NCBI GenBank assembly: GCA_003599055.1
Contig: QZIM01000023.1
Coordinates: 24,346-88,345 of the forward strand
Reading direction: 5' to 3'
Length of the DNA: 64,000 nt
DNA from: Candidatus Woesearchaeota archaeon
Lineage (GTDB): Archaea; Nanobdellota; Nanobdellia; Woesearchaeales; ARS49
Positions 182-61,770 of the stretch are shown here, one piece after another. The translations under genes and the position numbers were made by a program. Position 1 is the first letter of the stretch, and the number at the start of each line of letters is the position of its first letter. Below the pieces are notes generated by a model. It saw nothing but the letters and a program-made list of their open reading frames with translations, did not search any database and was not told the origin of the DNA.

Positions 182-236
182 ACGCAGATCCGGCGGGTTG
201 GAGCCGCCTATTCTAGCCAGGTTAAACTATGCCCCC
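163..236 (-). tRNA. tRNA-Trp (anticodon CCA), 74 nt, no intron
   Basis: The reverse complement folds as a cloverleaf. Acceptor GGGGGCA/TGCCCCC; D stem GUUU/GAAU (two G-U pairs); anticodon stem GGCGG/CCGCC with loop CU-CCA-AC (anticodon at 199-201); T arm CTGCG-TTCAAAT-CGCAG; discriminator A. CCA is not encoded. Confidence 0.85.
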
Positions 237-2627: not shown

Positions 2628-5069
2628 TTACTTCTTCTGCGCAATGCCTTTGAGCGTGAGGAGGAGCGCGAGTATTGCAAGCAAGCCAAGAACTATGCTG
2701 AACGCGGGTCGGAAGTGTAGGGGCAGCCACGTCTTGACGACAACAAGAGAGACCGTGTTGCTTTCAACGCGTGCGCCTTTTTCATCAGTTGCGATGAATT
2801 TGACGCGCTCTTCGCCGCTAAAGCCGTGCTCAGGGGTGAGGACTGCGGTTGTGCCGATAAAGTCTATCGTGATTTTTTGCGTGGGTGTTGCGCTGAAGGT
2901 GAGTTTTCCGCCGTCGGGGTCGGCAAAGTAGGGGCCAAGTTCAAGGCGTGCGACCGTGTCTTGTTTCCAAACCTGCGGGGGGATTGCGCCGCTTGCGTTT
3001 TCCGTGCGTGAGCCAAGGGCAATGAGCGTCACAAGTGCAAGGAGCGCAATGCCTGCATAGAGGAGTGTTCTGCGTGGTTTTTCCGCCTGTTTTTTGAGTT
3101 TCAAATAGGCAGTGTGGGTTCCGGTTGTTATGGGTGCGGTGATGTAAACAAAATGTTTGTCTTCGCCGGATTTTTCGAATCGGACGGGTTTCCACGTGCC
3201 GGTGTATTTTGCAAGGCGTACTTCATCGAGGGTCGCGTTGTGCTTTTTGAGGAGGCGCTTTGGGAGCGCGATGGTGGCTTCGTATGCGCAGTTCGCGTTT
3301 GATTGGAGCGTGAACGTGTGTAGGACGGTGGGGCTTGGCTTAACCGGCGGCGTGCGTCTTTTGATGAGGATTGTTAGGTTTTTGATTGGGTGTTCTGCGG
3401 TGATGCGAAGGAGGTGAAGTCCTGATTTCCACGCGCGAAGGAGGAACGGTGCGTCTTTGGGAACGAGGCGGTATGTGCGTTTGATGAGGTTTTTGCGCAG
3501 GATTTTGCGGGTGATGAGGATGAGTGCGACAAGGATGATGCCGATGGCTGCTGCGCCGAGGTTGGGAAGAATAAAGTCCCACGAAAGGGCGACAATGACT
3601 GCGATGCCAAGGAGTGCGAAGAGGAGTCCTCTGCGTGACGTGCGCGGCTGTTTTTTGCCGCTCTTTACTTCTTTGCGGGAAACGAGGTGATATTGTTTTG
3701 CAAGTGCCTTTTCTGCTTGTGCTTGGAGTTTTGCGCGGTAGTTTTCAAGGCGTTCTTCTTTGCGCTTGCGTTCGCGTTCCTGTTTTTCTTCTTCTGCCTT
3801 GCGTTCTGCGTCGCGTTTTGCGCGTTCTGCTTCTTTTTTGGCGCGTTTTTCCTCTTTGAGGAGGAGTTTTTCCGCGCGTTTTTGTGCGCGGATTGCCTGT
3901 CGTTCTTCTTTTGCGCGTGCGCGGATTGCTTTGCGCTCAGCGCGCCACTCGGAGAATGCGTGCCTGCGTTGTGCAAAGGCGGGCGAGCGGAGGTAGCGGG
4001 CGAGCCAGATAAGGAGCGCGATGCCAAGGAGGATTGCAAGGATGATGCTAAAGAAGACCACGGGATTTCTTTCAAGAAGGGTCGGGCTTTTGAGCTTGAT
4101 GAAGAGTTCTTTGGTGTATGCAATGCCGGTGTCGGTAACGGTTGCGGTGAGCGTTACGGGGTAGGTGTCTTCGGGGTTTTCTTCGGTTGGGGTGAGGCGG
4201 AGCTGAAGGGGGAGTGTTTGTCCGGGCTTGAGCGTGACAACGTTTGGGTTTATCTTGGCAAAGTCTGCGCCGGTAAGGCCGAGTTGGTAGCTGGTTGTTC
4301 TATCGCCAATGTTTTTGATGGTGAGTTCTGCGCTGGTGTCGCCAAAGTCTGAGCGAATGGTGCTGATGCCGGGTGCGAGTTCGGGGATGTCGGTTGGGGT
4401 GATGATGAGTTCGAGCGTGAGTTGTTTTGCCTGGCTGCTCTTTTCGCTTTCAATGGTGAGGGTGAGGGGGAAGCTTCCGCTTTGGGTGCAGTCAGAGGGG
4501 TTGGCGGTAACTTCAACGGTTTGTGCGCTTTTTCCGGTAAGGACGAGTGCGGGGTGCGAGATGTGCGCTTCGTCGTGCCCTTCTGCGAGGAGCGTGTAGA
4601 GTTCGGTGAAGTTTGCGTTGTTTTGGATGGTGATGGGGTATGTTGCGGTGCCGCAGGGCGGGATGACTTGGCTGTTTTTTTCAAGGGTGATGTTGATGGT
4701 GTCAGGGAGCGCAACGCGGATGGTTTGCGCAAGGAGTAATTCTGATGTTCCGTCGGAGAAGATGATGTCAACGGGCAGGTTTTGCGCGCGGGGTTCGCAA
4801 GGGGCGTTGTAGATTGCGGTGATGATGCCGGTTTGCCCTGCTGCAAGGGTGAACCGGGTGGTGGAGAAGAGGACGTTTTGTGCGCCTGCTTGTTCTGCAA
4901 AGATGTCAAATGTTGCGGGTTCACCGGCGGTGTTTTGGACGGTAAGGTTGCGCGTGGTGCTGGTGCACGAATCAAGGGTGATGTCGGAGGTTTCGCCGAA
5001 TGCGACGAATTGGGCACTGGCGCTAAGAAGACTTGCCAACAAGATAAAAAGAAGGGCGAGCCGCTTCAT
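2628..5069 (-). CDS. large multi-pass surface protein with Ig-like ectodomains and a cytoplasmic K/E/R-rich coiled segment
   Basis: Signal-like MKRLALLFILLASLLSASA starts at the internal ATG 5069, 8 nt after the upstream stop. T/S-rich beta-sandwich-like repeats, at least 4 TM segments, a ~90 aa KE/R-rich stretch, and a C-terminal TM anchor. The track ORF extends to 5138. Confidence 0.6.
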   Translation of the reverse strand: MKRLALLFILLASLLSASAQFVAFGETSDITLDSCTSTTRNLTVQNTAGEPATFDIFAEQAGAQNVLFSTTRFTLAAGQTGIITAIYNAPCEPRAQNLPVDIIFSDGTSELLLAQTIRVALPDTINITLEKNSQVIPPCGTATYPITIQNNANFTELYTLLAEGHDEAHISHPALVLTGKSAQTVEVTANPSDCTQSGSFPLTLTIESEKSSQAKQLTLELIITPTDIPELAPGISTIRSDFGDTSAELTIKNIGDRTTSYQLGLTGADFAKINPNVVTLKPGQTLPLQLRLTPTEENPEDTYPVTLTATVTDTGIAYTKELFIKLKSPTLLERNPVVFFSIILAILLGIALLIWLARYLRSPAFAQRRHAFSEWRAERKAIRARAKEERQAIRAQKRAEKLLLKEEKRAKKEAERAKRDAERKAEEEKQERERKRKEERLENYRAKLQAQAEKALAKQYHLVSRKEVKSGKKQPRTSRRGLLFALLGIAVIVALSWDFILPNLGAAAIGIILVALILITRKILRKNLIKRTYRLVPKDAPFLLRAWKSGLHLLRITAEHPIKNLTILIKRRTPPVKPSPTVLHTFTLQSNANCAYEATIALPKRLLKKHNATLDEVRLAKYTGTWKPVRFEKSGEDKHFVYITAPITTGTHTAYLKLKKQAEKPRRTLLYAGIALLALVTLIALGSRTENASGAIPPQVWKQDTVARLELGPYFADPDGGKLTFSATPTQKITIDFIGTTAVLTPEHGFSGEERVKFIATDEKGARVESNTVSLVVVKTWLPLHFRPAFSIVLGLLAILALLLTLKGIAQKK

Positions 5070-14761: not shown

Positions 14762-17635
14762 ATGACTGATGAGAACCGCCCGATTGAGGAAGTGCTTGCA
14801 GAGTTAGGCGCGCTCAGTGAAGAGTTGGGTGTATCTGGTGCAAACGAGCCAAGAGGAGATGTCATCGTGCAGGATTCTGAAGAGGATGTGCACGCGCTAA
14901 CGCCTGCTGAAGGGTTTGGTTCTGAGATTGCAAATGCAGGTATGACTGCCGAGTCAGGTGCGCACGGTGCAATGGATGACAGTACACAGATATCTGACGG
15001 GCGGGAAGGTGTGCCGGGCTCCGCGAATGAAGACGGGGTGTCATTTGATGAGCTTGATGCGCATTTGGATGAGAGCGGCATCGTGCCTTTGCCTGGGCCA
15101 ATTGCAGGAGAGGCGCACGGAATTCCTGCACGCGCAGGCTTGGAAACAATTGTTGTCCCGCCGCCAAGCGCAGATGAGGACAAAAGTAGCCCTGAGTCAA
15201 CCCGTGCGGAAAGGTGGGGTGATGCGGTGCGGGTTTCGGGAACGCAAAATACGCACCGGCACGAGAGCAGGGCGTCTTCGCGCGGGTCGGGGACTGATGG
15301 GCAGCGTTCAGTTGAGAATGTGCTTTTTGAGGTTGGGCACGTGATTGATGAGCGGTACAGGATATTACCTCCGTTTGATGGTGCAGAGAGGTCCTATGTG
15401 AGTTCTGGCGCGATGGGTGTTGTGTATAAGACTGAGCGCTCGACGGTTCCGGGAAAAGAGCGCGCGCTCAAGGTGATGATGGGTGTGACGGAGGAGTCTC
15501 AGAAGGAATTGTTGGAAGAGGCGGAGCATTTGGGCCAAATGAACCATCCGAATGTGTGTGATGTGTATGATGCGGGTTTGCTGAAGGGAAAGGATGGACG
15601 GGATTATGTGTATATGGTTATCGAGTTGCTGACAGGAGGGACGCTCTCAAAAAAGTTGAAGGCGGAGCGCGCACCGTCGAGTAAGAAGGATTTGAGGGGG
15701 CGGATTTCGGGGTTGTTTTCAACAGGGCGGGTTTCGCAATCGGAAGTTCACGCGTCAGTGGAGAGGGATTTTGGGCTGTCGCTGATTGAGCAGCTCGCAG
15801 CGGGTCTTTCTGCGGCGCACGCAAAAGGAATTTTGCATCTTGACTTAAAGCCGGATAATGTGCTCTATGATGAGAATGGCGTGCCGAAGCTGATTGATTT
15901 TGGTCTTGCGGGCGTGAGCAATCGGATGCGCGAGTCAGGTGAGCAGAAGTTTGTGGGAACGCCTGCGTATGCGTCTCCTGAGCAGGCGTTGTTTGTTCCG
16001 GAACTTGATGTGCGAACGGACGTGTATGGTCTTGGCGCGGTGTGGTATCACGTGCTTGCGGGAAATTATCCGTTTGCGCATTTGGGAAAGCCGGGAAATT
16101 ATGTTGAGTTGCTTGAGTGGATAGTGCACAGGAATTTGCCTTCTCCGCGTCAATTGAACAGGAAAGTTCCAAAAGATGTTGATGCGGTTGTGATGAAGAT
16201 GATGGCGCGGCATCCTGACGAACGTTATCAATCAATGGACGAGCTTCTCAGTGACATAAAGAGGATTAAGCAGGGTCGTGTTCCGCGTGCGAGAAGGGCG
16301 CCGGTATTGCGCGTGTTTAAGGAAGGGGTGTATTTTGCTGGTTCGCATAAGAAAAAGGTTGGCGCTGCACTTTTGGCGGCTTCGCTTTTGACGGCAAATG
16401 AGGTTCAGAAGTATCAGTATGCGGGTTCTGCGCGCAAGAGTATTGCTGAGGCGCAGGTTCGTTTCAATTCTGTTCAGGATGCGAAAGTGTGGGAGTCGGG
16501 TATTGCGCCTGTTCACACTGATATTGTTGCCGCGCTCAACATCGTGCAGGAAAGGCAGCGGGTTGCGGATGCGTGGGTGAGCGAGCAGGGGACGCCCGAG
16601 GCGATTCGCGCGCAGTCTGAATTGCAGCGTCAGCAGGCACAGCTTGCCGCGTGGCAGCGCGAGGGGTATTCTGCGTTTGTGCGGGCGCAAATGCGTGATG
16701 TCTTGGCAGGGATTGCGGGCTTGCGTGTTTCTTCTGATGGTTTTGTTCCTGATGAAAGTTCTGTTGGGCCGGTGATTTCGCGCGTGAGTGATGTGCGTGA
16801 CCTCGCGGCAGAGTGGGTAAGTAAGCAGGGAACTGCTGAAGCAATTGAGGCACGGCAGAATCTTGAGCGCGAGCTTGCGCGTTTGCAGGGTTGGGTGGAT
16901 GCGGACAGGAAGAGAAGGGAGGCGGAGGCGCGAATTCCCGAATATGAGCGGGCGATGAGTGAATTCAGGTATGTTGAAGCGTATAATATACTGTCTGATG
17001 CAAGGCGGCTCAGTGTTCCTGTTGTTGCGCGGCTAAACGGCGCGCTGGAGGGTTCGCTTGAGGAGCGCGCCGAAGGGAAGTTAAGGGAGGTGCAGTCGCT
17101 TCGTGACCGCGCGGCATCCGAGCGTGGAGAGTACGCCGCGCAGGTGGTGCGCGAGTATGGTGAGCGTTTGCGCGCCCTTGAGGAGCAGCGCGTGCGCCGT
17201 CAGGTTTCAGCTGCGCGTTTTGATGAGGAGAGGCAGGCAGCATATCGTTCGTTGACTGCACGGCTGGATGCGCCAAATGATTCCGCCCGTCCGTATTTGA
17301 ACAGGGTTCCTGTTGCGGATGAGACGAGGGCGCGTTGGCTGCTTGATGCAATGCGCGAGGCAAGTGATGCGGAGGCGTTCGGGAATGCGCTTCGTTCGGT
17401 TCCGGGTTTGGAGAATCAGGCGGAGATTGCGGCAAGGTATTCGCGTCACGGAAGTTTTGTGGAGCGGCTCAATGAGGTGTATCGGCGCGAGGGCAGCACG
17501 ATTTCTGATGAGGAGTATGGGCGAAGGCGCGAGGCGCTTCGCAATCTTTTGCAGGACACGCGGCTCTCTGATGAGGAGTATGAGCAGAGGTGTGAGCAGG
17601 TTATTCGGACAAGAAGGACAAGGAAAATAGGGTAA
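14762..17635 (+). CDS. Hanks-type Ser/Thr protein kinase with acidic N-terminus and long repeat-containing C-terminal extension
   Basis: GAMGVVYK..ALKVM (ATP-binding lysine), HLDLKPDNVL catalytic loop (non-RD), DFGLA, GTPAYASPE. An ~80-aa-spaced internal repeat: WVSEQGTPEAIRAQSELQRQQAQLAAWQ (from 16574) and WVSKQGTAEAIEARQNLERELARLQGW (from 16814). Confidence 0.85.
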   Translation: MTDENRPIEEVLAELGALSEELGVSGANEPRGDVIVQDSEEDVHALTPAEGFGSEIANAGMTAESGAHGAMDDSTQISDGREGVPGSANEDGVSFDELDAHLDESGIVPLPGPIAGEAHGIPARAGLETIVVPPPSADEDKSSPESTRAERWGDAVRVSGTQNTHRHESRASSRGSGTDGQRSVENVLFEVGHVIDERYRILPPFDGAERSYVSSGAMGVVYKTERSTVPGKERALKVMMGVTEESQKELLEEAEHLGQMNHPNVCDVYDAGLLKGKDGRDYVYMVIELLTGGTLSKKLKAERAPSSKKDLRGRISGLFSTGRVSQSEVHASVERDFGLSLIEQLAAGLSAAHAKGILHLDLKPDNVLYDENGVPKLIDFGLAGVSNRMRESGEQKFVGTPAYASPEQALFVPELDVRTDVYGLGAVWYHVLAGNYPFAHLGKPGNYVELLEWIVHRNLPSPRQLNRKVPKDVDAVVMKMMARHPDERYQSMDELLSDIKRIKQGRVPRARRAPVLRVFKEGVYFAGSHKKKVGAALLAASLLTANEVQKYQYAGSARKSIAEAQVRFNSVQDAKVWESGIAPVHTDIVAALNIVQERQRVADAWVSEQGTPEAIRAQSELQRQQAQLAAWQREGYSAFVRAQMRDVLAGIAGLRVSSDGFVPDESSVGPVISRVSDVRDLAAEWVSKQGTAEAIEARQNLERELARLQGWVDADRKRREAEARIPEYERAMSEFRYVEAYNILSDARRLSVPVVARLNGALEGSLEERAEGKLREVQSLRDRAASERGEYAAQVVREYGERLRALEEQRVRRQVSAARFDEERQAAYRSLTARLDAPNDSARPYLNRVPVADETRARWLLDAMREASDAEAFGNALRSVPGLENQAEIAARYSRHGSFVERLNEVYRREGSTISDEEYGRRREALRNLLQDTRLSDEEYEQRCEQVIRTRRTRKIG

Positions 17636-17780: not shown

Positions 17781-20700
17781 ATGGAGCACCAAGAGTCAAA
17801 GGGCGTGATGCACAATGTCAAAGATGCTGCGAAAAAAGTGCAGCCGGTTGTTTCTTTTGTGAGAAAGCACGCGGTGCTCTTCACGCTGTTATTTGTTCTT
17901 GCGCTGCAGTTTATGCCAAACGGCGGGGGAACGTACCCGTGGGGCGGTATGTATATGCGGATGATGACCAAGGATTTGCCGTTTGCGGATTCCGCGGGCG
18001 CATCGAGTGTGGATAATTATTTGCAGCAGCAGGCAGCGGTTGTGGTCGCGCAGCAGTATCCGAGTTTGCCTGATGCGAGCAGGCAGAATGTGATTGCGGA
18101 TGTGGTGCGAAGGCTTAAGGAACAGCAGGGTGATGCGCTTGCGGGCCAGCAGGGACAAATCGCGCAGCAGGTGCGTGACCATTATCAGTATGAGGTTGAC
18201 GGAAGAAAGTTCAACTATATGCCCGATATTGACCCGTATTATTACTTACGATTTGCAAGGAATATTGTGGAGAAGGGGCACAATTATGATGTTTTGAAGG
18301 AGGGTATTCCGTGGGATACGCACATTTATGCACCGCTGGGGACGGTTGCCGACAGTTCTTGGCACCAGCACGTGTTTGCAGTTTTATATTGGGGCGGCAG
18401 GGTTTTTGATGAGAAGATTACGCTGATGGAGGCGGCGCAGTATTATCCGATTGTGTTTATGCTGCTCTCGATGGTGCTTGCGTTTGCGATTGCGTATCGT
18501 GTTTCGGGCCTCGTGGGCGGATTTTTTGCCGCGCTGATGTTGGGCTTGGTTCCGGCAATGACGGGAAGGACGCTTTTTGGGCACGCGGATACGGATGCGT
18601 ACCAGGTTTTCTTCCCGCTGCTTGTTGTTTGGCTGCTGACGGAAGCGCTCGGGAAAAAAGAGTGGAAGCAGCAGGCGCTGTTCGCATCGCTCACGGGTCT
18701 TGCGATTGCGTCGTACACGAAGTTTTGGTCGGGCTGGTGGTATTTGTTTGATTTTGTTTTGGGCGCGCTTGCGGTGGCGTTCGTTATCGAATTATACCTG
18801 CACGTGAGAAAGCAGAGTGTGCGTCAGGCGATGCACAATGCGCATTTGCGCAAGTTCACGGTTGTGGGCGGCGCGTTCCTTGTTGTTTCGCTGCTTGCGG
18901 GCGGGCTCTTTATTGGGTTTGGCCAGTTTTCGGAGGCTGCGTTTTCTGCGGCGTTCCGGTTTTCTGCGGACTTTAAGGATGCGAGTCACGCGAATTTGTG
19001 GCCGAATGTGTATACGACTGTGGCAGAATTAAACCCATCATCGCTCAGTGCGGTGGTGCAGTCGGTTGGCGGCCCGCTTTTGTTCGCGTTTGCCTGTCTT
19101 GGCATTGTGCTTTTGCTGCTGAAGTTTGATGAGCACGGCAAGGTGGATATCACGTATTCGGTTTTGCTCGCATTGTGGTTTGCGGGAACCGCGTACGCGT
19201 CGCTTAAGGGTATTCGTTTTATTTTGCTGATTGGTCCTGCGTTTGCGGTGGCGTTTGGAGCGGCAGCGGGGCTGCTCTATTATCGTTTGTCTGATTTCGC
19301 GCATAGGCAATTGCACATCGGTAAAAGTATCACCGCGGTGATTTTGGCGCTGATGCTTGGTTTTGCGATTATGGGTCCTGTTTCTGCAGGGCCGCATATT
19401 GTGAGAGACTCGTATGTTGAGGCGACGCGGGATGTGCCGATTGTGAATGATGCGTGGTGGAATGTTTTGACGCGCATTAAGGAGTCAAGTGAGCCGAATG
19501 CAATTATCAACTCGTGGTGGGATTTCGGGCATCATTTCAAGTTTATTGCGGACCGTCCGGTGACGTTTGACGGTGCGGTGCAGAATTCGCCGCAGGCGCA
19601 CTGGATTGGCAGGGTGCTGCAAACGCCAAATGAGGATGAGGCGGTTGCGATTTTGCGGATGCTTGATTGCGGCGCGAACAGCGCGTATGATGTTGCATTT
19701 AACGCGACCAAGGACCCGTATGTCTCAGTTTCGCTGGTAAAGGAAATTATTATGGTTGATGAGGGTGAGGCAAAGGCGCTTGCAAAAGCGGCAAATGTTC
19801 CTGCGGATATCACGCGGTACACGCATTGCAGTCCTCCGGAGAATTTTTTTATCACGTCTGCGGATATGGTGGGGAAGAGCGGTGTTTGGGCGCATTTTGG
19901 CACGTGGGATTTTGCGCGTGCGGAAGTGTGGCAGAAGTGGCGCTTGCTTGATGAGTCTGTGGCGGTTCCGCAGATGATGGACCGGTTTGGCTGGTCGAAA
20001 GAGACGGCTGAGCAAACGCATCGTGATGCGGTTTCTCTTGGCAGTGAGGACGCGGCGAACCAGTGGATTTCGGGTTGGCCGAGTTATTTGGGGAACCCTG
20101 CGGGCTGTGAGCGCGAGGGCGCAATGGCGCGGTGCGGCCAGGTGACGGTAAATCTCACAAGCGGTGACTCTGAAGTGCGGGTAAGCCAGGGTACGGCAAA
20201 GGCAGGCGAGTTGTACGTCTTTGACCGGTTTGGGAATTACACCGTGCGAACGATAAATGGCGGCAATGCCGCAATTGCGGTTGTTCTGTGGCCGTCTGAT
20301 GGCGGCCTTTCAGGTATGCCGGTTGTGCGCGAGCTTGCGGCAAGTATGTTTACGCGATTGTTCTTTATGGACGGGCTTGGAACGCGGCACTTTGACAAGT
20401 TTGCCGAGGACAATCAGCTCTTTGGGGGCAAGATTGTTGCGTGGAAGGTGAATTGGGAGGGCGGCGAGGCGCACGTTCCTGATGCGCTCAGGCCAAAGTC
20501 TGAAGTGGTTGCGGGCGCAAAGGTTCAGTTGGATTACATTGGCTGGACTGAGGATGGTGCGGTCTTTGATTCAAGTATTGTGAACTGGCAGGCGAATAAC
20601 GTGACGAAGGACACGACGTTTGCGGGTGCGGTGACAAAGCCAATCGAGATTACGTACGGGCGTGGCCAGCTGATTGCCGGGTTTGAGAAACAAATCGAGG

Positions 20701-20828
20701 GGATGAAGGCAAACCAGACAAAGACGATTAAGATTGCGCCCGAGGAGGCGTATGGAACCGACCCTGAGGCGCACCCGCTTGGGAATAAGACGCTGAACTT
20801 TAGGATTCGCGTGGTGAGTGTGCAGTGA
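17781..20828 (+). CDS. aglB: oligosaccharyltransferase AglB (STT3 family) fused to a C-terminal FKBP-type peptidyl-prolyl isomerase domain
   Basis: About 13 TM helices, an acidic loop HADTDAY, and the WWDFGH (WWDYG) catalytic motif. The last ~130 aa, KVQLDYIGWTEDGAVFDSS...GRGQLIAGFEKQIEGMKANQTKTIKIAPEEAYG...LNFRIRVVSV, match the FKBP signature. Confidence 0.85.
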   Translation: MEHQESKGVMHNVKDAAKKVQPVVSFVRKHAVLFTLLFVLALQFMPNGGGTYPWGGMYMRMMTKDLPFADSAGASSVDNYLQQQAAVVVAQQYPSLPDASRQNVIADVVRRLKEQQGDALAGQQGQIAQQVRDHYQYEVDGRKFNYMPDIDPYYYLRFARNIVEKGHNYDVLKEGIPWDTHIYAPLGTVADSSWHQHVFAVLYWGGRVFDEKITLMEAAQYYPIVFMLLSMVLAFAIAYRVSGLVGGFFAALMLGLVPAMTGRTLFGHADTDAYQVFFPLLVVWLLTEALGKKEWKQQALFASLTGLAIASYTKFWSGWWYLFDFVLGALAVAFVIELYLHVRKQSVRQAMHNAHLRKFTVVGGAFLVVSLLAGGLFIGFGQFSEAAFSAAFRFSADFKDASHANLWPNVYTTVAELNPSSLSAVVQSVGGPLLFAFACLGIVLLLLKFDEHGKVDITYSVLLALWFAGTAYASLKGIRFILLIGPAFAVAFGAAAGLLYYRLSDFAHRQLHIGKSITAVILALMLGFAIMGPVSAGPHIVRDSYVEATRDVPIVNDAWWNVLTRIKESSEPNAIINSWWDFGHHFKFIADRPVTFDGAVQNSPQAHWIGRVLQTPNEDEAVAILRMLDCGANSAYDVAFNATKDPYVSVSLVKEIIMVDEGEAKALAKAANVPADITRYTHCSPPENFFITSADMVGKSGVWAHFGTWDFARAEVWQKWRLLDESVAVPQMMDRFGWSKETAEQTHRDAVSLGSEDAANQWISGWPSYLGNPAGCEREGAMARCGQVTVNLTSGDSEVRVSQGTAKAGELYVFDRFGNYTVRTINGGNAAIAVVLWPSDGGLSGMPVVRELAASMFTRLFFMDGLGTRHFDKFAEDNQLFGGKIVAWKVNWEGGEAHVPDALRPKSEVVAGAKVQLDYIGWTEDGAVFDSSIVNWQANNVTKDTTFAGAVTKPIEITYGRGQLIAGFEKQIEGMKANQTKTIKIAPEEAYGTDPEAHPLGNKTLNFRIRVVSVQ

Positions 20829-30789: not shown

Positions 30790-32214
30790 TTATTTCAGCA
30801 GGCTCGCAAGCAGTTCTTTCACGACATTCGGTGCTGCTTTGCCGCCGGTTGCTTTCATAACTTGTCCGACGAGGAACATAAGGGTTTTCTCGTTTCCTTT
30901 TTTGTAGTCGTCAACGGCTTTCGCGTTGTTCGCAATGGCCTCTTCGCACGCTTTTTTGAGCGCGCTTTCGTCTGCGACGACGCCGAGGTTTTGTTCGTCG
31001 ACGTATGCCGCGGGGCTGAATTTTTTCTCTGCGAGCAGGGCGATAATGTTTTGCCCGATGCGGTCCGTGATTTTTTTGGTTGAGAGGAGTTTGAAGAGTT
31101 CGGCAAGGTGGTGGGAGTCAAATTCGGTTTGCGTAAGCCCTATTTTTTTGTCGTTGAGGATGCGAAGGACTTCGCGGCGAATCCAGCGTGCGGAAAGGAT
31201 GGGGTCGCAGCCGTGTTTGGCGATGTCATCAAAGAGTGTGGCGACGTCAAGGTTTTGCGCAATAATCTTGGCATCTCCTGAATCGACGTTCCATTCTGTG
31301 CTCCAGCGTTTTGCGCGGTTTTCGGCAAGTTCGGGAAGGGTTGCCTGGACGGATTTGACCCAAGTCTCGCTGATGGTAAATGAGGGAAGGTCCGGTTCGG
31401 TGATGTAGCCGTAGTCTTCTTCGGATTCTTTGAGGCGCATATGGTAGGTGACGCCGCGTTCCGCGCTCCACCCGCGGGTTTCTTTGCGGACCTCCTCTTG
31501 TTTCTGCCGCTCAATTTCAAAGAGGAGCGCGCGGTAGATTTCCTTAAAGCCGGTGATGTTTTTGATTTCGACGCGCTGGTAGTTTTTCTCGGCAATGGAG
31601 ACGTTGACGTCTGCTTTAACGACGCAGGTGTTGAGGTCAAAGATGCCGAGGTAAGAGAGAATGCTTGCAAGTTTTTCCATAAATTCTTCTGCTTCTGCAG
31701 GTGAGCGCATATCGGGTTCGGTGACGATTTCGCAAAGGGGGATTCCGCTTCGGTTGTAGTCGATGAGGCAGTTGTTCTGTTCGTGGATGAGCGAGCCGGG
31801 GTCTTCTTCCATATGAACGCGCGTGATGCGGACAAGGCGCTCCTCGGGAAGGGCGGTTTTGTGCGCGGCATCGGCGGTTGCGCGTGCTTCCGTGAGGACG
31901 AGTTGTCCGTTTGTTCCAAGCGGTGTTTCGTGTTGGGTGATTTGGTAGTTTTTGGCGAGGTCAGGGTAGAAGTATGTTTTGCGTGAGAAGGTCACGTGCG
32001 GGGTTATCGTGCAGCCAAGGGCAAGGGCGAGTTTTGTTGCGAATTCAAGTGCGCGCGTGTTAAGGACTGGTTTGCTGCCGGGGTGTCCAAGGCAGGTTGG
32101 GCAGACTGCCGTGTTTGGTTCGGCGGCGTTTGTCGGGCAGCCGCAGAAGAGTTTTGTTTCTGTTTTGAGCTGCACGTGTACTTCGAGTCCGATTTTGACG
32201 TTATTTTTTGTCAT
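30790..32214 (-). CDS. gatB: Asp-tRNA(Asn)/Glu-tRNA(Gln) amidotransferase subunit B
   Basis: N-terminus IGLEVHVQLKTETKLFCGCPT and a C-terminal YqeY-like tail. 474 aa. Confidence 0.95.
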   Translation of the reverse strand: MTKNNVKIGLEVHVQLKTETKLFCGCPTNAAEPNTAVCPTCLGHPGSKPVLNTRALEFATKLALALGCTITPHVTFSRKTYFYPDLAKNYQITQHETPLGTNGQLVLTEARATADAAHKTALPEERLVRITRVHMEEDPGSLIHEQNNCLIDYNRSGIPLCEIVTEPDMRSPAEAEEFMEKLASILSYLGIFDLNTCVVKADVNVSIAEKNYQRVEIKNITGFKEIYRALLFEIERQKQEEVRKETRGWSAERGVTYHMRLKESEEDYGYITEPDLPSFTISETWVKSVQATLPELAENRAKRWSTEWNVDSGDAKIIAQNLDVATLFDDIAKHGCDPILSARWIRREVLRILNDKKIGLTQTEFDSHHLAELFKLLSTKKITDRIGQNIIALLAEKKFSPAAYVDEQNLGVVADESALKKACEEAIANNAKAVDDYKKGNEKTLMFLVGQVMKATGGKAAPNVVKELLASLLK

Positions 32215-33616
32215 AGCTTTTTGCGACTTGTATCATTTTGTGTTCGTGGAAGTGTGGCGCGGTTATCATGAGGCCGACCGGCATTCCGTGTGCTTCTCCG
32301 ATTGGTATGGTGATGTGGGGGAGTCCTGCAAGGTTGGGCGGGACGGTAAGAACGTCCATTTGGTAGTGTTGCAGGGGTGTTAGGTTTTTGAGTTCGTCGA
32401 ACGTGGGCGCGACAAGGGGCATTGTGGGCGTGACAATAACGTCAACGTCCTTGAACACTGCTTGGTATTCCTGAATAATTTTGGTGCGCGCCTGCGCTGC
32501 TTTGGTGTAGAATGCGTCGCGATAGCCTGCCATGCGTGCAAAGGTGCCAAGGAGTACGCGCCGTTTTGCTTCTTCGCCGAGGTGGTTGTCGCGTACACGC
32601 GAGAAGTAGTCGTTGTAATTTCCCGAGAGTGCTTCGCTTGCGCCGTAGCGGATGCCGCAGTATTTGGCGAGGTTGGTTGAGGCTTCGCTCATGGCAAGGG
32701 TGTAGTATGCGGCAAGCCCGTATTTGGTGCTGATGGGGAGTTTTATGTCGAGCCTTCGTGCTCCGTTTTGTTCAAGTTGTTGCAGGGCGAGCATAAGGAC
32801 GCGCCGTGTTGTGTTGTCCATGGTTTCGGGGAATGAGTCTTGGGGGATGCCGATGCGAAGTCCGTGTATTGCGCGCGGGATGTCGGTGAGCGGGTCTGTT
32901 GGCGCATTTGCGCTGGTGGAATCGTGCGGGTCTGGCCCGCTGATGGCGTCAAGAAGCAGGGCGGCGTCTTCAACCGTGAGTGCCATACTGCCGATTTTGT
33001 CAAGGGAGTTTGCGTAGTCGATGAGGCCGTATCGCGAGACGCGCCCAAAGGTGGGCGTGAGTCCGACGGCTCCGCAAAAGCTTGCGGGGTTTGCGATTGA
33101 CCCGCCGGTGCTTTCTGCGAGGGCAAGGTGGGGGAAGGGTGCTTTTTTGGTGAGTCCTGCGGCTCCGCCTGATGACCCTCCGCAGGTTCTTTTTTTGTCA
33201 AGCGGGTTAAGTGGTTTTTCAATGCCTGTTCCGGTGTTGATGCTAAAGCCGCCGAATCCGAATTCGTCTTGGACGGTTTTGCCTAAAATGATGGCGCCTT
33301 CATCAAGGCAGCGCTGAACTGCCGTGGCGTTGTAGAGGGGCTTGTATCCTTTGAGTATTGCTGAACTGGCGGTGCTTTCAACGCCCTGAACGCACAAGTT
33401 GTCCTTAACGGAGATAATGACGCCGAAGAGTTTGCCGCGTGCATTTCCTGTTTTGGCGAGTTGCTGGAGTTGTTCTGCGCGCGCAACCGGGTCTGCCCAG
33501 GCGGCAATGTAGCGGTATTCTTTGTTGATTGCGTGGGCGGATTCAAGTGCTTTGCTTGCGTGTTCGACAAGGTCGATGTTTCCTCGTTTTGCGTCCGTGA
33601 TGAATTGTTGTATCAT
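32201..33616 (-). CDS. gatA: amidotransferase subunit A (amidase signature family)
   Basis: Amidase signature with CGGSSGGAAG. ATG 33616 overlaps the gatC stop (ATGA); the track ORF extends to 33691. Confidence 0.95.
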   Translation of the reverse strand: MIQQFITDAKRGNIDLVEHASKALESAHAINKEYRYIAAWADPVARAEQLQQLAKTGNARGKLFGVIISVKDNLCVQGVESTASSAILKGYKPLYNATAVQRCLDEGAIILGKTVQDEFGFGGFSINTGTGIEKPLNPLDKKRTCGGSSGGAAGLTKKAPFPHLALAESTGGSIANPASFCGAVGLTPTFGRVSRYGLIDYANSLDKIGSMALTVEDAALLLDAISGPDPHDSTSANAPTDPLTDIPRAIHGLRIGIPQDSFPETMDNTTRRVLMLALQQLEQNGARRLDIKLPISTKYGLAAYYTLAMSEASTNLAKYCGIRYGASEALSGNYNDYFSRVRDNHLGEEAKRRVLLGTFARMAGYRDAFYTKAAQARTKIIQEYQAVFKDVDVIVTPTMPLVAPTFDELKNLTPLQHYQMDVLTVPPNLAGLPHITIPIGEAHGMPVGLMITAPHFHEHKMIQVAKSYDKK

Positions 33617-33897
33617 AGTGTTTTTGGTCCTTTGAAGTACTTGTCTTTTTTGTGGGGGGTGAGGGCAAGCGCATCTTCGCGGTTCACGCACGGTTGAGGC
33701 GTGTCTTCGCGGGTGATGTTTTGGATGGGGGTGGGGTGAAACGACGGCGGCACGTTTGCAGTGTCAAGTTCGTTCAATATTTCAAAGTTGGTGAGGATGT
33801 CCTGCAGGTCTTTGGCGAACGTTTTGATTTCTTCGTCTTTGAGCCGAAGCCGTGCGTTTTGCGCGACTTTTTTGACAAGGTCAGGAGTGATTTCCAT
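33613..33897 (-). CDS. gatC: amidotransferase subunit C
   Basis: 94 aa; ITPDLVKKVAQNARLRLKDEEIKTFAKDLQDILTNFEILNELDT is the typical GatC pattern. First gene of the gatCAB operon. Confidence 0.85.
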   Translation of the reverse strand: MEITPDLVKKVAQNARLRLKDEEIKTFAKDLQDILTNFEILNELDTANVPPSFHPTPIQNITREDTPQPCVNREDALALTPHKKDKYFKGPKTL

Positions 33898-34018
33898 AAG
33901 GGAAAGGAGTTCTGATGATGTTTAAAAAGAGTGTGGTTGCCGATTTTCGGAAAAGCAGCGTAGTTTCAGAAAATGTTCAGACCTGTTCGGAATAGTTCCC
34001 GCTTTTTCGTCGATGACT

Positions 34019-34029
34019 TCTTTAAAAGA
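34019..34029 (+). promoter_or_regulatory. TATA-like box upstream of the class-II-like tRNA
   Basis: CTTTAAAAGAA lies about 22 nt upstream of 34051. A T6 run follows the RNA at 34170-34175. Confidence 0.45.
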
Positions 34030-34050
34030 AGAATGAAAAAGAAAAACCGC

Positions 34051-34166
34051 GGCGGGGTATGGCTAACCCGGTAAGCCGCAGAGCTGAAACCTCTGTGCCG
34101 AAAGGACTTCCGGGTTCAAAAACCTTGCGGTCTCAAGCTGTTGGGTTGAATTTCCCGGCCCCGCCG
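34051..34166 (+). tRNA. long-variable-arm (class II-like) tRNA with anticodon GAA and a 32-nt BHB intron in the T-loop (59/60)
   Basis: Acceptor GGCGGGG/CCCCGCC (flanking GC/GC could extend it to 9 bp); U8 A9; D arm with a GGC/GCC core; anticodon stem CAGAG/CTCTG with loop CU-GAA-AC (34086-34088); 14-nt variable region TGCCGAAAGGACTT. T stem CCGGG/CCCGG is interrupted by a perfect hBHBh' motif: TTCA|AAA|ACC...GGT|TGAA|TTT. Removing 34121-34152 gives the canonical T-loop TTCAAAT. Discriminator G. Confidence 0.6.
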
Positions 34167-34242
34167 CTCTTTTTTCAGAATAGGAAGGGATTCACCTAAC
34201 AAAAAAAGAGAGTACTTATAAGAGGATTAGTGAAGTCATCCT

Positions 34243-34851
34243 ATGAGGATAAAAATGGTAGTGTTACTCTTCTTGCTGATGAGTGCAGGAGTATGGGCAT
34301 GCAGTCTGACTAAAATTCCACCCCACATATCATTTGTCAGTAAAGACGAAGCAGTCTGCCATTCAATGATATCCACGTTCGATTCTCAAGGATTCAAACC
34401 ACCAAGCAGCGTGGCAATTCCTTGCACAATTCAAATCTCAAGCGTGTCAAGCGAAAGACCTTCCGCAAACGAACGAATAGACTCAATCGCATTGAGTGCA
34501 CCTGATTCTGAAACCATACTAAACTTTTTGACAAAATATCAAGACCAATACGTATCAATAGAAAAGCAAAGTGACAGTGAGTTCAATGAGTTTGAACAGA
34601 TGAGAAAGACTGTCAATGCTAATATTTGTAATTGTTCAAGAATAGATTTAATTGAGCGCTCTGATGGCTGGACTGCGTACACGATGGATGTAAAAGACAC
34701 TTGTTCTTTTGGAGCAAGCTGTTGGACGCCTCCTGCGCCGTGTCCTGGCGCGGATTACGTTGGCTTGCGAGCAAAGTTAACCTTCTGGGATATTGTTAAG
34801 CTGCCGTGGGCGTTTTTGAAGTTTATCAAATTCACCATATTTAATCTCTGA
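34243..34851 (+). CDS. AT-rich hypothetical secreted protein (lipobox-like VWAC)
   Basis: MRIKMVVLLFLLMSAGVWAC signal; Cys-rich C-terminus. Visibly lower GC (about 40-42% in sampled 60-mers) than the surrounding genes (about 53%). Confidence 0.45.
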   Translation: MRIKMVVLLFLLMSAGVWACSLTKIPPHISFVSKDEAVCHSMISTFDSQGFKPPSSVAIPCTIQISSVSSERPSANERIDSIALSAPDSETILNFLTKYQDQYVSIEKQSDSEFNEFEQMRKTVNANICNCSRIDLIERSDGWTAYTMDVKDTCSFGASCWTPPAPCPGADYVGLRAKLTFWDIVKLPWAFLKFIKFTIFNL

Positions 34852-34941
34852 GAACTGAAGACTGACTTCTGAGAACTGATAACTGAAAACCGAGAACTGA
34901 GTCATACCAACCACCAACTACAAACAACCAACTACTGACTA
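34848..34941 (+). repeat. phased heptanucleotide array (13 units) in a convergent spacer
   Basis: ctgagaa/ctgaaga/ctgactt/ctgagaa/ctgataa/ctgaaaa/ccgagaa/ctgagtc/ataccaa/ccaccaa/ctacaaa/caaccaa/ctactga/cta. Supplies TGA 34849-34851 to the + gene and TAG (cta 34939-34941) to aspS. Confidence 0.85.
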
Positions 34942-36711
34942 TTTCGGTCCTTTCGCAACATCAACTTTCAGGTTCAGCTCTTTCAGGAACTCAGGCGTCC
35001 ACTCCTGCGGGCTTCCGTCAAGCGGATTTTCAGTCGATTTGTTGCGTGGGAATGCGATGAATTCGCGGATGTCGTTTTGCCCGCCCATAAGGGCGACGAG
35101 GCGGTCAAAGCCAATGGCCATTCCGCCGTGGGGTGGTGCTCCGTATTTGAATGCTTCGAGCAAGAAGTCAAATCGTTTTGCTGCTTCTTCGTATGTTAAG
35201 CCTATTACTTTGAGGACGCGTTCCTGCATGTCTTTGCGGTGGATACGGATGCTGCCCGAGGAAAGTTCTACGCCGTTAAGGACAATGTCGTAGAGTTTGC
35301 CGCGGACCTGCCCGGGGTCGCTTTCGAGCTTGTCCCAGTCGTCGTCGTGCGGGCGGGTGAAGATGTGGTGGCGTGCGGCCCATTGGTTCGCATCGTCGTT
35401 CCATTCGTACATGGGAAAGTCAATGACCCAGAGGAATTTCCATTCGCCGTCTTTGATGAGGTTGAGTTTGCGGCCGAGGTGGAGGCGTACTTGTCCAAGG
35501 CCGTTTGCTGCCTTTTCGTATTGGTCTGCGGCAAAGAGGAGGAGGTCTCCGTCTTTTGCGGCTGTCGCAGTAAGCAGTTGTTGTTGTATTGCGGGCGAGA
35601 AGTATTTGGCGATGTTGCTTTCAAGTTTTCCCGCTTCTGCTTTCATCCAGGCAAGGCCGGGGAGTTTGTGTGTCTTTGCAATCTCGATAAGTTCTTCGAT
35701 ATCTCCGCGGGAGAAGTTTGCGCATCCGGGTGCTTTGAGGCAAAACACGCGGCCTGATTTGTCAACGACTGATTTGAAGACGCCAAAGTCTGAGTGTTTG
35801 ACGATGTCGGTAACTTCGGTGAATTCAAGACCGAAGCGAAGGTCAGGTTTGTCTGAGCCGTATGTGGTCATTGCTTCGTGGAAAGTCATGCGGGGGAATG
35901 GGAGGGGTAATTCAACGCCGAGTGTTTTTTTGAAGATGTGCGCAACGAGTTTTTCGCCGATGGACAGGACATCATCCATGTCGACAAAGCTCATTTCAAG
36001 GTCGATTTGGGTGAATTCGGGCTGGCGGTCTGCGCGCAAATCTTCGTCGCGCAGGCATCGTGCGAGTTGGAAGTAGCGGTCAAACCCGGAGACCATAAGG
36101 AGTTGTTTGTAAATTTGGGGTGATTCGGGAAGGGAGAAGAATTTGCCGGGGTGGACGCGCGATGGTGATTTGAACACGCGGGCGCCGCCGGGCGTTGTTT
36201 TGACGAGCAGGGGTGTTTCGATTTCGAGAAATGATTCTGAGCTTAAGAATTCGCGGGCGGCCTGTGCTGCTTTGTGGCGGAGCAAAAGGTGTGACTGCAT
36301 GGTTGGCCGGCGCAGGTCTAAGTAGCGGTATTTGAGCCGTGTTTCTTCGCTGGCAAGGTTGCGGTCGTCGATTTCGATGGGCGGTGTTTCTGCGTGGCTC
36401 AGGATTTCAAGCGTGTCCGCGATGACTTCGATTTCGCCGGTGGGGAGTTTGGGGTTGAGCATTCCTTCGGGGCGGTTTCGGACGTGTCCGTGAATGCGGA
36501 TAACAAATTCGCGGCCCAGGTGTTCTGATTGTGCGTGCGCGTCTTTGTTGTGCGATGGGTCGAAAACGATTTGCGTGATGCCAAAGCGGTCGCGAAGGTC
36601 GATGAAGATGAGCCCGCCGTGGTCGCGTCTTGTATGTACCCAGCCGCAAAGAGTGACTTCTTTTTTGAGGTCCGACGTGTTCAGTTGGCCGCAGGTGTGT
36701 GAGCGGAGCAT
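34939..36711 (-). CDS. aspS: aspartyl-tRNA synthetase, bacterial-type (with GAD insertion domain)
   Basis: 590 aa; LCGWVHTRRDHGGLIFIDLRDRFGITQ; motif 2 RDEDLRADRQPEFTQIDLEMSF; motif 3 GGMAIGFDRLVALM. Confidence 0.95.
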   Translation of the reverse strand: MLRSHTCGQLNTSDLKKEVTLCGWVHTRRDHGGLIFIDLRDRFGITQIVFDPSHNKDAHAQSEHLGREFVIRIHGHVRNRPEGMLNPKLPTGEIEVIADTLEILSHAETPPIEIDDRNLASEETRLKYRYLDLRRPTMQSHLLLRHKAAQAAREFLSSESFLEIETPLLVKTTPGGARVFKSPSRVHPGKFFSLPESPQIYKQLLMVSGFDRYFQLARCLRDEDLRADRQPEFTQIDLEMSFVDMDDVLSIGEKLVAHIFKKTLGVELPLPFPRMTFHEAMTTYGSDKPDLRFGLEFTEVTDIVKHSDFGVFKSVVDKSGRVFCLKAPGCANFSRGDIEELIEIAKTHKLPGLAWMKAEAGKLESNIAKYFSPAIQQQLLTATAAKDGDLLLFAADQYEKAANGLGQVRLHLGRKLNLIKDGEWKFLWVIDFPMYEWNDDANQWAARHHIFTRPHDDDWDKLESDPGQVRGKLYDIVLNGVELSSGSIRIHRKDMQERVLKVIGLTYEEAAKRFDFLLEAFKYGAPPHGGMAIGFDRLVALMGGQNDIREFIAFPRNKSTENPLDGSPQEWTPEFLKELNLKVDVAKGPK

Positions 36712-51945: not shown

Positions 51946-52659
51946 GTGCTGATAATGAAGTTCAAGATTCCTGATGACCTCAAAAGCTACAGGGACAAAA
52001 GTTCAAATATTATTCTTCCCTGCGCTCCGTCCGAGAATCTTGCAGAGATTATTGGGATTATTTCAGGAGATGGACACGTAGGAAGCAAAGATAATCGTAT
52101 AGAAATTTCAGGGAATTCTATTGATGAGTTAAAGTATTTTGAACACGTAAGCGCTCTTCTGAAAGAAGTATTCAATGTCAAATTCAAGCTGCGCAAGCTA
52201 AAGAATACAAATGCAATGACGCTCTATAAACGCTCACAAGGCATAGTCTGTTTCTTAAGGCACATAGGGTTTGAGAAGAGTAAGTGTATTTTAAAAATTC
52301 CTCACTGGATTTGGACGAAGGAAAACTTGGCAAGTGCGTTTGTTCGTGGTGTTTTTGACACAGATGGAGCGTTGTGTCTAAAGAAAAATCACGGTCGTTA
52401 TGCAATTTATCCTGTTGTAAATATTACGCTTAAAGATGAAATGCTTCTAAGAAAAATTGCAACATGGACAAAAGAAAGGGGAATACCAAACTATGTCGGA
52501 AAATGCAACTCAGTCGATTCGCGAACAAACAAAAGATATCTTCGGTTCTACCTGCAAGTAAGCGGGTACGCAAACACAATAAAATGGTGGTCGCAGGTCG
52601 GAAGTAGAAATTCAAAACAACAAGGACGATTTGAAAAAGCAATGAGTTGTTTTGAATAA
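51946..52659 (+). CDS. free-standing double-motif LAGLIDADG homing endonuclease
   Basis: Motifs IIGIISGDGHV and FVRGVFDTDGAL. 237 aa, about 38% GC. The stop lies 1 nt from the 3' end of the convergent tRNA-Phe. Confidence 0.8.
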   Translation: MLIMKFKIPDDLKSYRDKSSNIILPCAPSENLAEIIGIISGDGHVGSKDNRIEISGNSIDELKYFEHVSALLKEVFNVKFKLRKLKNTNAMTLYKRSQGIVCFLRHIGFEKSKCILKIPHWIWTKENLASAFVRGVFDTDGALCLKKNHGRYAIYPVVNITLKDEMLLRKIATWTKERGIPNYVGKCNSVDSRTNKRYLRFYLQVSGYANTIKWWSQVGSRNSKQQGRFEKAMSCFE

Positions 52660-52660
52660 A

Positions 52661-52749
52661 TGGGGGTAGTCGGATTTGAACCAACGACGTCACCGTGGCT
52701 GAGTAGTTACACTTCAGCGGTGTGTTCTCCCGGGCTGAACTATACCCCC
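52661..52749 (-). tRNA. tRNA-Phe (GAA) with a 15-nt canonical 37/38 BHB intron
   Basis: Acceptor GGGGGTA/TACCCCC; D arm GTTC-AGCCCGGGA-GAAC; anticodon stem CACCG/CGGTG; loop CU-GAA-G|intron TGTAACTACTCAGCC|A (intron 52697-52711). The hBHBh' motif is CTGA:TCAG with bulges AGT and CCA. G37; T arm GTTGG-TTCAAAT-CCGAC; discriminator A. Confidence 0.85.
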
Positions 52750-60461: not shown

Positions 60462-60498
60462 CCGACTGCCAACGACTAACCACCAACTACAAACTGCC
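60462..60498 (+). repeat. phased heptanucleotide array (CCAAC-type half only)
   Basis: ccgactg/ccaacga/ctaacca/ccaacta/caaactg/cc. Contains the TAG stop (cta 60487-60489) and the last codons of serS. Confidence 0.7.
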
Positions 60499-61770
60499 TG
60501 CTTTCGTGAGCCTATCAAATCCCGTGTACTTCTGCAACACCTTGGGAATGAACACTGTTCCGTCTGCTTGTTGGAAGTTTTCAATGATGGCAACAAGTGC
60601 GCGCGTGGTGGCAACGCAGGTGCTGTTCAGCGTGTGTATCCACAGTCGTTCGGTTCCTTTTTGATAGCGGATGTTTGAGCGGACCGCTTGGTAGCTTGTG
60701 CAGTTTGAGCACGAGACGACCTCTCGGTACGCGTTTTGGACAGGATACCATACTTCGATGTCGTATTTTTTGGCGGCGACGATGCCTAAGTCGCCCGTGC
60801 AGATGTTGACGACACGAAAGGGAAGCCCTAAGCTTTCAAAAAAGTCCGTGCTGTTTTTGAGGAGTTCTTCGTGGAATTTCCAGCTCTCGTCAGGTGTGCA
60901 GAAGACAATCTGCTCAACTTTGTTGAACTGGTGGACGCGGAAGATGCCTTTTTGGTCTTTGCCGTGCGCGCCTGCTTCTTTGCGGTAGCAGGGTGAGTAG
61001 CCAACCATTTTGATGGGGAGTTTTTTCTCATCAAGGACTTCATCGCGGTGTATTGCGGTAAGCGGGTGTTCGGACGTGGCGATGGGGTAGAGGTCTTCGC
61101 CGTCTATTTTGTACAGGCTTTCTGCAAAGTCGCCAAGGGAGGTGACTCCTTCGTATGCGTTGCGGGATATCATATGGGGAGGAATCACTGGGACAAATCC
61201 GCGTTTGCGCATAAAATCCATTGCGTGCTGAACAAGTGCCATTTCCAAAACCGCAAGGTCTCCTTTTAAGAAGTACCAGCGTGCGCCGGAGATTTTGGCT
61301 GCGCGTTCAAGGTCTGCCCAGCCGTTTTCCGTGATTAAGTCAACGTGGCTTTTTGGTGTAAATGAGAAAGTGGGCTTTTTGCCGACTTCCGCAATGGTAA
61401 CATTTTCAGTATCGTCTTTGCCGTACGGGACTGAGTCGTGCATAAGGTTGGGTAGCTGAAGGAGGCACGTCCTGATGTTGGTTTCAAGCTCGGTAAGCTG
61501 TCCCTCTGCTTCTGCGATGATTTTGGGAAGTTCAGCGGCTTCGGAGATGAGCGAGCTTGCGTCTTTGCCTCCTTTTTTGGCCGTGTTGATTTCCGCACTG
61601 ACTTTGTTGCGGCGCGCGCGGGCGTTGTCGATTTTGCCTTTGAGCGAACGCCATTTTTCGTCAAGTTGCAGGACGGTATCAAGAAAGACAAGGTATTCGG
61701 GTACTTTGCGCCGCGCGATGTTTTGGCGGACAACTTCAGGGTGTGAGCGGATGTACGTGATGTCAAGCAT
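60487..61770 (-). CDS. serS: seryl-tRNA synthetase
   Basis: N-terminal coiled-coil arm MLDITYIRSHPEVV..; motif 2 FRVHQFNKVEQ; 427 aa. Confidence 0.95.
   Translation of the reverse strand: MLDITYIRSHPEVVRQNIARRKVPEYLVFLDTVLQLDEKWRSLKGKIDNARARRNKVSAEINTAKKGGKDASSLISEAAELPKIIAEAEGQLTELETNIRTCLLQLPNLMHDSVPYGKDDTENVTIAEVGKKPTFSFTPKSHVDLITENGWADLERAAKISGARWYFLKGDLAVLEMALVQHAMDFMRKRGFVPVIPPHMISRNAYEGVTSLGDFAESLYKIDGEDLYPIATSEHPLTAIHRDEVLDEKKLPIKMVGYSPCYRKEAGAHGKDQKGIFRVHQFNKVEQIVFCTPDESWKFHEELLKNSTDFFESLGLPFRVVNICTGDLGIVAAKKYDIEVWYPVQNAYREVVSCSNCTSYQAVRSNIRYQKGTERLWIHTLNSTCVATTRALVAIIENFQQADGTVFIPKVLQKYTGFDRLTKAGSL

Follow-up and report, generated by a model that had tools for sequence, protein, structure and literature searches.

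A strain-variable, intron-containing tRNA gene with a class II-like body and a phenylalanine anticodon in a Woesearchaeota genome

The locus and the architecture of the gene

The stretch of DNA analysed here (64,000 nucleotides, referred to as the window) is a piece of a Woesearchaeota (DPANN) chromosome carrying AglB, HerA/Mre11, Cdc6 and archaeal pilus genes. Its AglB/STT3 oligosaccharyltransferase (17781-20828, plus strand) carries an FKBP domain fused at the C terminus and adjoins a 957-aa eukaryote-like Ser/Thr protein kinase (14762-17635, plus strand). Between the genes for AspRS and gatCAB lie a tRNA gene of unusual composition (34051-34166, plus strand; 116 nt, with a spliced product of 84 nt) and, as context outside the RNA, an orphan ORF (34243-34851, plus strand) with a signal-peptide-like N-terminus and 8 cysteines. 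The ORF has no Pfam match, and a search for homologues among 5.8 billion proteins returned only the ORF itself, so it was dropped as a handle for finding further copies; its N-terminus is conserved between strains, and the remainder is hypervariable and unalignable past about 34340-34358. A weak match to the Rfam DnaX frameshift element (34183-34235, plus strand; 20.2 bits, E 0.025, threshold 35) covers the A-rich run 5' of the ORF and is probably due to chance.

The arrangement of this junction differs among relatives. In the syntenic loci L005 and L007 (AspRS 74% identical) gatCAB follows directly after AspRS, and in L003 (AspRS 83% identical) a different insert of 2.9 kb occupies the AspRS-gatCAB junction; BLAST, ARAGORN and a scan aware of bulge-helix-bulge (BHB) motifs detected no related tRNA in any of the three. 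Because the syntenic junctions of the relatives are without the tRNA gene, the gene and the orphan ORF together appear to be a recent species-specific insert. A mobile-element context was considered and rejected, since no integrase, transposase, other mobile-element or viral genes were found near the locus. The AspRS itself is of bacterial type with a GAD domain, and its adjacency to gatCAB (30790-36711), which is kept in L005 and L007, fits a tRNA-dependent transamidation route to Asn and Gln in these archaea.

The search for relatives was extended to large sequence collections. A D-arm pattern gave one chance cyanobacterial match in 185,579 GTDB species genomes, a loop-anchored pattern allowing stem changes and any anticodon gave one chance match in the JGI metagenomes, and two patterns gave chance matches only in IMG/VR, so that no orthologue of the gene is known. 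With blastn against plasmid and phage records we obtained only generic T-arm and acceptor matches.

The gene is flanked by plausible transcription signals. A TATA-box-like TTTAAAA (34021-34027) lies 22-24 nt 5' of G34049/G34051, and a TTTAAA core is likewise found 25-29 nt upstream of the tRNA-Trp and tRNA-Phe genes of the window; downstream, a T6 run (34170-34175) is the likely archaeal terminator, and T-rich tracts also stand 3' of the other two tRNA genes. Both signals had been named in an initial sequence-only reading of this DNA, which placed the TATA box about 22 nt upstream. A GC dinucleotide (34049-34050), read directly from the sequence, is taken as a short leader; the pairs G34049-C34167 and C34050-G34166 could lengthen the acceptor helix to 9 bp.

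The 5' exon (34051-34120) was delimited by the ARAGORN drawing, the partial Rfam alignment and the minimum-energy fold. It begins with the 5' strand of a 7-bp acceptor stem (34051-34057; GGCGGGG/CCCCGCC) and a 3-nt connector, UAU (34058-34060), followed by a D arm (34061-34077) with the stem GGCU/AGCC and the 9-nt loop AACCCGGUA, by G26 (34078) at the junction with the next arm, and by the anticodon arm (34079-34095) with the stem CAGAG/CUCUG. The loop CUGAAAC (34084-34090) presents the anticodon GAA (34086-34088), on which ARAGORN and Rfam agree. Next come a variable region of 14 nt, U-GCC-GAAA-GGA-CUU (34096-34109), which forms a 3-bp stem including a G·A pair under a GAAA loop, the 5' strand of the T stem (34110-34114) and T-loop nucleotides 54-59 (34115-34120). 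The 3' exon (34153-34166) supplies U60, the 3' strands of the T stem (34154-34158) and acceptor stem (34159-34165), and the discriminator G73 (G34166); CCA is not encoded.

Joined in this way the T arm reads CCGGG-UUCAAAU-CCCGG, and the product has the features of an elongator cloverleaf: a 7-bp acceptor stem, a 5-bp T stem, a 5-bp anticodon stem with a 7-nt loop and U33, G18G19, A14, A21 and a T-loop of the form UUCRANY. With more than 10 nt forming a stem-loop in the variable region, the body falls into class II. The connector departs from this form, having three nucleotides instead of the usual two (positions 8 and 9), and for this ARAGORN rejects the gene under the -ss option, which imposes canonical spacers. 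The 14-nt variable region, the G discriminator, the loop CU-GAA-AC and an irregular acceptor/D junction had all been pointed out from the sequence at the outset and are indeed present, the UAU linker being placed alike by ARAGORN and Rfam; the 11-nt D-loop proposed at the same time is replaced by the 9-nt loop, GGCU/AGCC stem and G26 given by both programs. The predicted mature RNA is thus class II-shaped, with G1-C72, G73, an extra arm of 3 bp capped by GAAA and a GAA anticodon.

Neither ARAGORN on the raw locus nor Rfam at its gathering threshold calls the gene. After deletion of 34121-34152, ARAGORN reports a tRNA(gaa) of 85 nt whose variable arm is long and whose T-loop is TTCAAAT. The Rfam tRNA model under permissive settings aligns 34061-34095 as the D and anticodon arms and likewise places GAA as the anticodon; this alignment (14.9 bits, E 2.4) is partial because the intron interrupts the gene. 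Standard tRNA finders miss the gene because of its T-loop intron and irregular connector, and published tRNA sets for DPANN lineages may therefore be incomplete and may conceal similar oddities. The tRNA-Trp(CCA) gene of the window (163-236, minus strand) is called by ARAGORN and reaches 55.4 bits when Rfam is run with permissive settings; its absence from the list at the gathering threshold looks like a filter quirk.

To control for chance we used a BHB-aware scan in which every 3-4-3 candidate was spliced in silico and ARAGORN was run on each product. Across about 4,400 candidates on both strands of the window, tRNAs emerged at two loci only, the gene described here and a tRNA-Phe gene at 52661-52749 (minus strand), whereas the reversed window and four shuffled windows (about 3500-4300 candidates each) yielded none. 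BHB-like candidates are ∼8 times commoner on the plus strand (3866) than on the minus strand (501), for which G·U-permitting pairing and a strand composition bias are the likely cause. The minimum-energy structure of the unspliced precursor is a five-armed cloverleaf (-50.3 kcal/mol, z -3.07) in which the intron forms a hairpin on the T stem.

The T-loop intron and a second allele

The splicing motif (34110-34158) has the complete hBHBh' form, CCGGG-UUCA-AAA-ACC ... GGU-UGAA-UUU-CCCGG, in which two 3-nt bulges on opposite strands (34119-34121 and 34151-34153) enclose a central 4-bp helix (34115-34118/34147-34150), flanked by an outer helix (34110-34114/34154-34158) and an inner helix (34122-34124/34144-34146). 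Cleavage after the second nucleotide of each bulge would release a 32-nt intron (34121-34152) from tRNA position 59/60, and removal of these nucleotides leaves a canonical T arm and a tRNA that ARAGORN recognizes. The motif, the cut and the resulting T-loop TTCAAAT are those proposed in the sequence-only reading, which our analysis confirms. The same rule accounts for the 15-nt intron (52697-52711) at position 37/38 of the canonical tRNA-Phe(GAA) gene (52661-52749, minus strand), the normal, G37-bearing tRNA-Phe that had been noted 18 kb away. An ORF with LAGLIDADG homing-endonuclease domains (51946-52659, plus strand) ends one base short of that gene.

We ruled out a further intron, whether in the variable arm or in the anticodon loop, as neither offers a 4-bp central helix. 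No splicing endonuclease gene was identified among the scanned ORFs of the window. Position 59/60 is already known as a non-canonical intron site in archaeal tRNAs (PMC4090602), and broad-specificity endonucleases and many still-unfound disrupted tRNA genes have been reported for DPANN archaea (PMC5829648), so that the intron as such is ordinary for the group. A 5' segment of the intron (34123-34130, CCUUGCGG; CUUUGCGG in the second allele described below) is complementary to CCGCAGAG in the exon (34076-34083), which spans the 3' side of the D stem and the 5' side of the anticodon stem; in the minimum-energy fold of the precursor of the second allele this pairing replaces the cloverleaf, possibly by chance.

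Further independent assemblies were retrieved through the exact protein sequences of the neighboring GatC and the orphan ORF. One of them (L018, Logan ERR6226080) carries an identical allele, matching the window over 34055-34260; another (L009, SRR24236061) agrees with the window in the 5' half and stops at 34105; the third (L008, SRR24236065) represents a second allele, and both known alleles belong to one species. The position of 34087, the central base of the anticodon, is A in the window and in all three of these assemblies. Had it been a G misread as A, the gene would be an ordinary tRNA-Ser(GGA), an explanation that the recurrence of A across assemblies from three runs and in both alleles refutes at the assembly level and leaves with a negligible probability; GAA is not a sequencing error.

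Comparison of the window with the second allele reveals an abrupt change in divergence within the gene. Across 32993-34358 the two differ by about 0.1% up to 34105 and by >10% from 34106 on: there is 1 difference in 905 nt of gatA/gatC and none in 33917-34105, which includes the upstream region 33917-34050, followed by 16 differences in 34106-34157, none in 34158-34212 and 18 in 34213-34358. Six strain differences are clustered at 33898-33916, just 5' of the start of gatC, in an otherwise identical stretch. The strain-variable segment thus has its edge within the tRNA gene, in the variable arm, because it is at 34106 that the divergence jumps. Among the sequences compared we found no paralogue from which the divergent 3' patch might have come. 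The conservation of the 5' half is uninformative, since hardly anything varies on that side of the locus.

The changes on the variable side do carry information. All five exon substitutions are structure-neutral or structure-improving. The replacement of C34111 by A is matched by that of G34157 by T, converting T-stem pair 50-64 from C-G to A-U; the replacement of A34106 by C turns the G·A of the variable stem into G-C, so that this stem becomes fully Watson-Crick; and the two remaining changes affect unpaired nucleotides of the variable region. The substitution of G34157 by T is the sole change within 34144-34212, and we estimate the chance that a single change there would restore pairing at roughly 1/69 x 1/3, or ∼0.5%. 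The intron of the second allele is 30 nt long instead of 32, sits in the same place and has about 12 positions changed, yet the UUCA/UGAA helix and the two 3-nt bulges are intact and the inner helix has become one of 8 bp. Judged by comparison of the two sequences, the allele differences are those of an RNA that depends on folding and splicing, and we consider it highly probable that 34051-34166 is a genuine tRNA gene under structural constraint.

These data also bear on the possibility that the locus gives rise to an RNA which has the shape of a tRNA and is produced and spliced, with little or no part in translation. It might be a remnant or a site of recombination bordering a strain-variable island, or an RNA with a role other than decoding. 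Its poor charging would follow from the 3-nt connector, the R11-Y24 pair and the short extra arm. The jump in divergence at 34106 is the pattern that recombination of islands at tRNA genes would be expected to leave, attachment sites of archaeal viruses match 3' parts of tRNAs, the gene is absent from the AspRS-gatCAB junction of the relatives, one of which has another insert there, and several of the features of the RNA are non-canonical. Against this stand the compensated T-stem pair and the retained BHB motif, which show selection on a folded, spliceable RNA, the intact and conserved promoter and terminator, and the lack of integrase and mobile-element genes nearby. On balance we rate such a non-translational role as rather unlikely.

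Identity elements and predicted charging

The question of what the RNA carries turns on its identity elements, which point in more than one direction. G73 and a long variable arm are determinants for SerRS, which ignores the anticodon (PMC9976931), and the RNA has G73 (G34166), G1-C72 (G34051-C34165) and an extra arm. The rest of the body fits tRNA-Ser less well. The anticodon is GAA in all assemblies rather than NGA or GCU, and among the pairs C11-G24, G30-C40 and G4-C69, which are reported to be conserved in ancestral and archaeal tRNA-Ser (PMC13433404), only G4-C69 is present, the other two being replaced by G11-C24 and A30-U40; moreover, the Levitt pair A15-U48 is of the Leu type and the extra arm has only 3 bp. 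The sequence-only reading had pointed out that the single step G35A would produce this anticodon loop from that of a tRNA-Ser(GGA). We found no GGA relative, and with the 3-nt connector, G11-C24, A30-U40, the short arm and A15-U48 such a one-mutation origin is without support. UCY codons are in use (176 of 14,706). Set against other boxes, they do not make up an unusually small part of the UCN box, and codon usage therefore says nothing on whether a tRNA-Ser(GGA) is missing.

The Leu-like details raise the possibility of a leucine-accepting tRNA that reads Phe codons, derived from a tRNA-Leu with the anticodon GAG, UAA or CAA through one anticodon change. The 14-nt variable region with its 3-bp stem and tetraloop and the A15-U48 pair are compatible with this, and LeuRS, like SerRS, ignores the anticodon (PMC9976931). 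However, Leu identity depends above all on A73, G73 acts as an antideterminant towards the LeuRS of Haloferax volcanii, and A73G alone turns human tRNA-Leu into a Ser acceptor (PMC9976931); with G instead of A as discriminator, charging with leucine is very improbable.

Phenylalanine identity is defined by G34, A35 and A36 together with A73, and additionally by G20 in the archaeon A. pernix (PMC9976931). The RNA has the three anticodon bases (34086-34088) and differs in the other features compared, with G73, U20, a 14-nt arm and A37, whereas the tRNA-Phe of the window has A73, G20 as expected of archaeal and yeast tRNA-Phe, a short variable loop and G37. The combination A37/C38 is not in itself aberrant here, since the anticodon loop of the tRNA-Trp of the organism is CUCCAAC. 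The RNA might be a redundant phenylalanine tRNA with an unusual body, charged by PheRS through G34-A35-A36 and able to persist because it is harmless, the long arm being a legacy of a class II ancestor remoulded by an anticodon shift. The strongest universal Phe determinants, all three anticodon bases, are there, and a GAA anticodon alone makes yeast tRNA-Tyr a substrate for PheRS that is charged with Phe (PMC9976931). A harmless product would also explain how the gene persists in two alleles while UUY codons mean Phe. What makes this account rather unlikely is the absence of A73, G20 and G37, all of them present in the organism's own tRNA-Phe, and the expectation that G73 and the extra arm should still attract SerRS.

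We therefore favor, tentatively and at somewhat less than even confidence, the prediction that the gene encodes a serine-accepting tRNA reading Phe codons. The RNA would be transcribed from its own TATA promoter to the T-run; the archaeal splicing endonuclease would cut each bulge behind its second nucleotide, 34120 and 34153 would be joined by a ligase, and CCA would be added to the spliced RNA. Serylation would then be the most likely outcome, because SerRS ignores the anticodon, PheRS wants A73 and G20, and G73 repels archaeal LeuRS. The candidate charging enzyme is the seryl-tRNA synthetase encoded in the window (60487-61770, minus strand; Pfam PF02403 and PF00587), which is of the common (bacterial-like) type and has the N-terminal tRNA-binding arm. 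The Ser-charged tRNA would compete for UUU and UUC with the normal tRNA-Phe (52661-52749), leading to Phe-to-Ser substitution, presumably at a low level given the unusual 3-nt connector, the shortness of the arm and the lack of G37.

The cost of such substitution can be gauged from the AspRS gene next door. We compared all 34 of its UUY codons with 119 homologues and found most of them at positions dominated by Phe; if other aromatic residues are counted along with Phe, this holds for nearly all of them. UUY codons still mean Phe and the genetic code is standard, and a codon reassignment was rejected on the match of the AspRS codons with conserved Phe or aromatic residues. For the same reason efficient serylation would be harmful, and this speaks for a weakly active tRNA or for a different outcome of charging. 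With an atypical Ser body and a harmful consequence of efficient decoding, charging by PheRS and a minor translational role remain serious rivals to the serine-accepting tRNA.

A bolder version of the serine prediction, which we hold to be fairly improbable on the sequence evidence, is that this is a dedicated missense tRNA under selection, Ser-charged and reading Phe codons in a cell whose tRNA genes are single-copy; if so, no natural case would precede it in Archaea. It would then imply a deliberate or tolerated statistical Phe-to-Ser mistranslation, or a first step toward codon reassignment, with the variable 3' half of the gene swapped between strains together with a surface-protein cassette.

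Comparison with known systems

A mismatch between tRNA body and anticodon is known from bacteria, yeasts and human populations, and in the literature searched we found no archaeal example. Archaea usually have a single gene for each tRNA, and mistranslation by one of them should come at a cost. The present locus offers a concrete, clonable test case in which one gene of 116 nt, the likely SerRS and the competing tRNA-Phe lie on the same contig, and it opens the question of whether small-genome symbionts tolerate or exploit ambiguous decoding.

The closest parallel in decoding is the human variant tRNA-Ser-AGA-2-3 G35A (anticodon AAA), which has been measured to insert Ser at Phe codons (PMC12993449, PMC8599886). 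The archaeal RNA resembles it in being class II, in having G73 and a Phe-codon anticodon, and in existing beside a normal tRNA-Phe. The human variant, however, differs by one nucleotide from a known tRNA-Ser gene, whereas here no Ser parent is known, the body is atypical and the organism is an archaeon with single-copy tRNA genes, in which the insertion of Ser is a prediction.

In Candida the codon CUG has been largely reassigned, whereas the UUY codons examined here stay at conserved Phe positions. The tRNA-Ser(CAG) of Candida, which reads this Leu codon as Ser (PMC13433404), is nevertheless comparable as a Ser-type tRNA that bears the anticodon of another amino acid and is maintained in nature.

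Bacterial allo-tRNAs, which occur sporadically in genomes and metagenomes, combine a long variable arm with anticodons other than those for Ser and Leu and are predicted or shown to be serylated (PMC5389517, PMC7609411). They share with the present RNA the mismatch between a class II body and the anticodon. Their acceptor/T-stem geometry is 8/4 or 9/3 (PMC5389517) and they are bacterial, whereas the RNA described here is 7/5 (possibly 9/5), archaeal and interrupted by an intron; reading its possible 9-bp acceptor stem as that of an allo-tRNA was rejected on the T-stem length, the D arm and the anticodon. A tRNA-Sec was rejected as well, as the anticodon is GAA and not UCA, the T stem has 5 bp against a 13-bp acceptor/T domain (9/4 in archaea), and the D stem, which is long in tRNA-Sec, has 4 bp; Rfam gave no tRNA-Sec match.

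In its intron, finally, the gene is like other archaeal tRNA genes with non-canonical BHB introns (PMC4090602, PMC5829648), sharing with them the hBHBh' motif, the cut rule and an intron position that is already known. In those genes the body and the anticodon agree; it is the mismatch between the two that constitutes the novelty of this tRNA.
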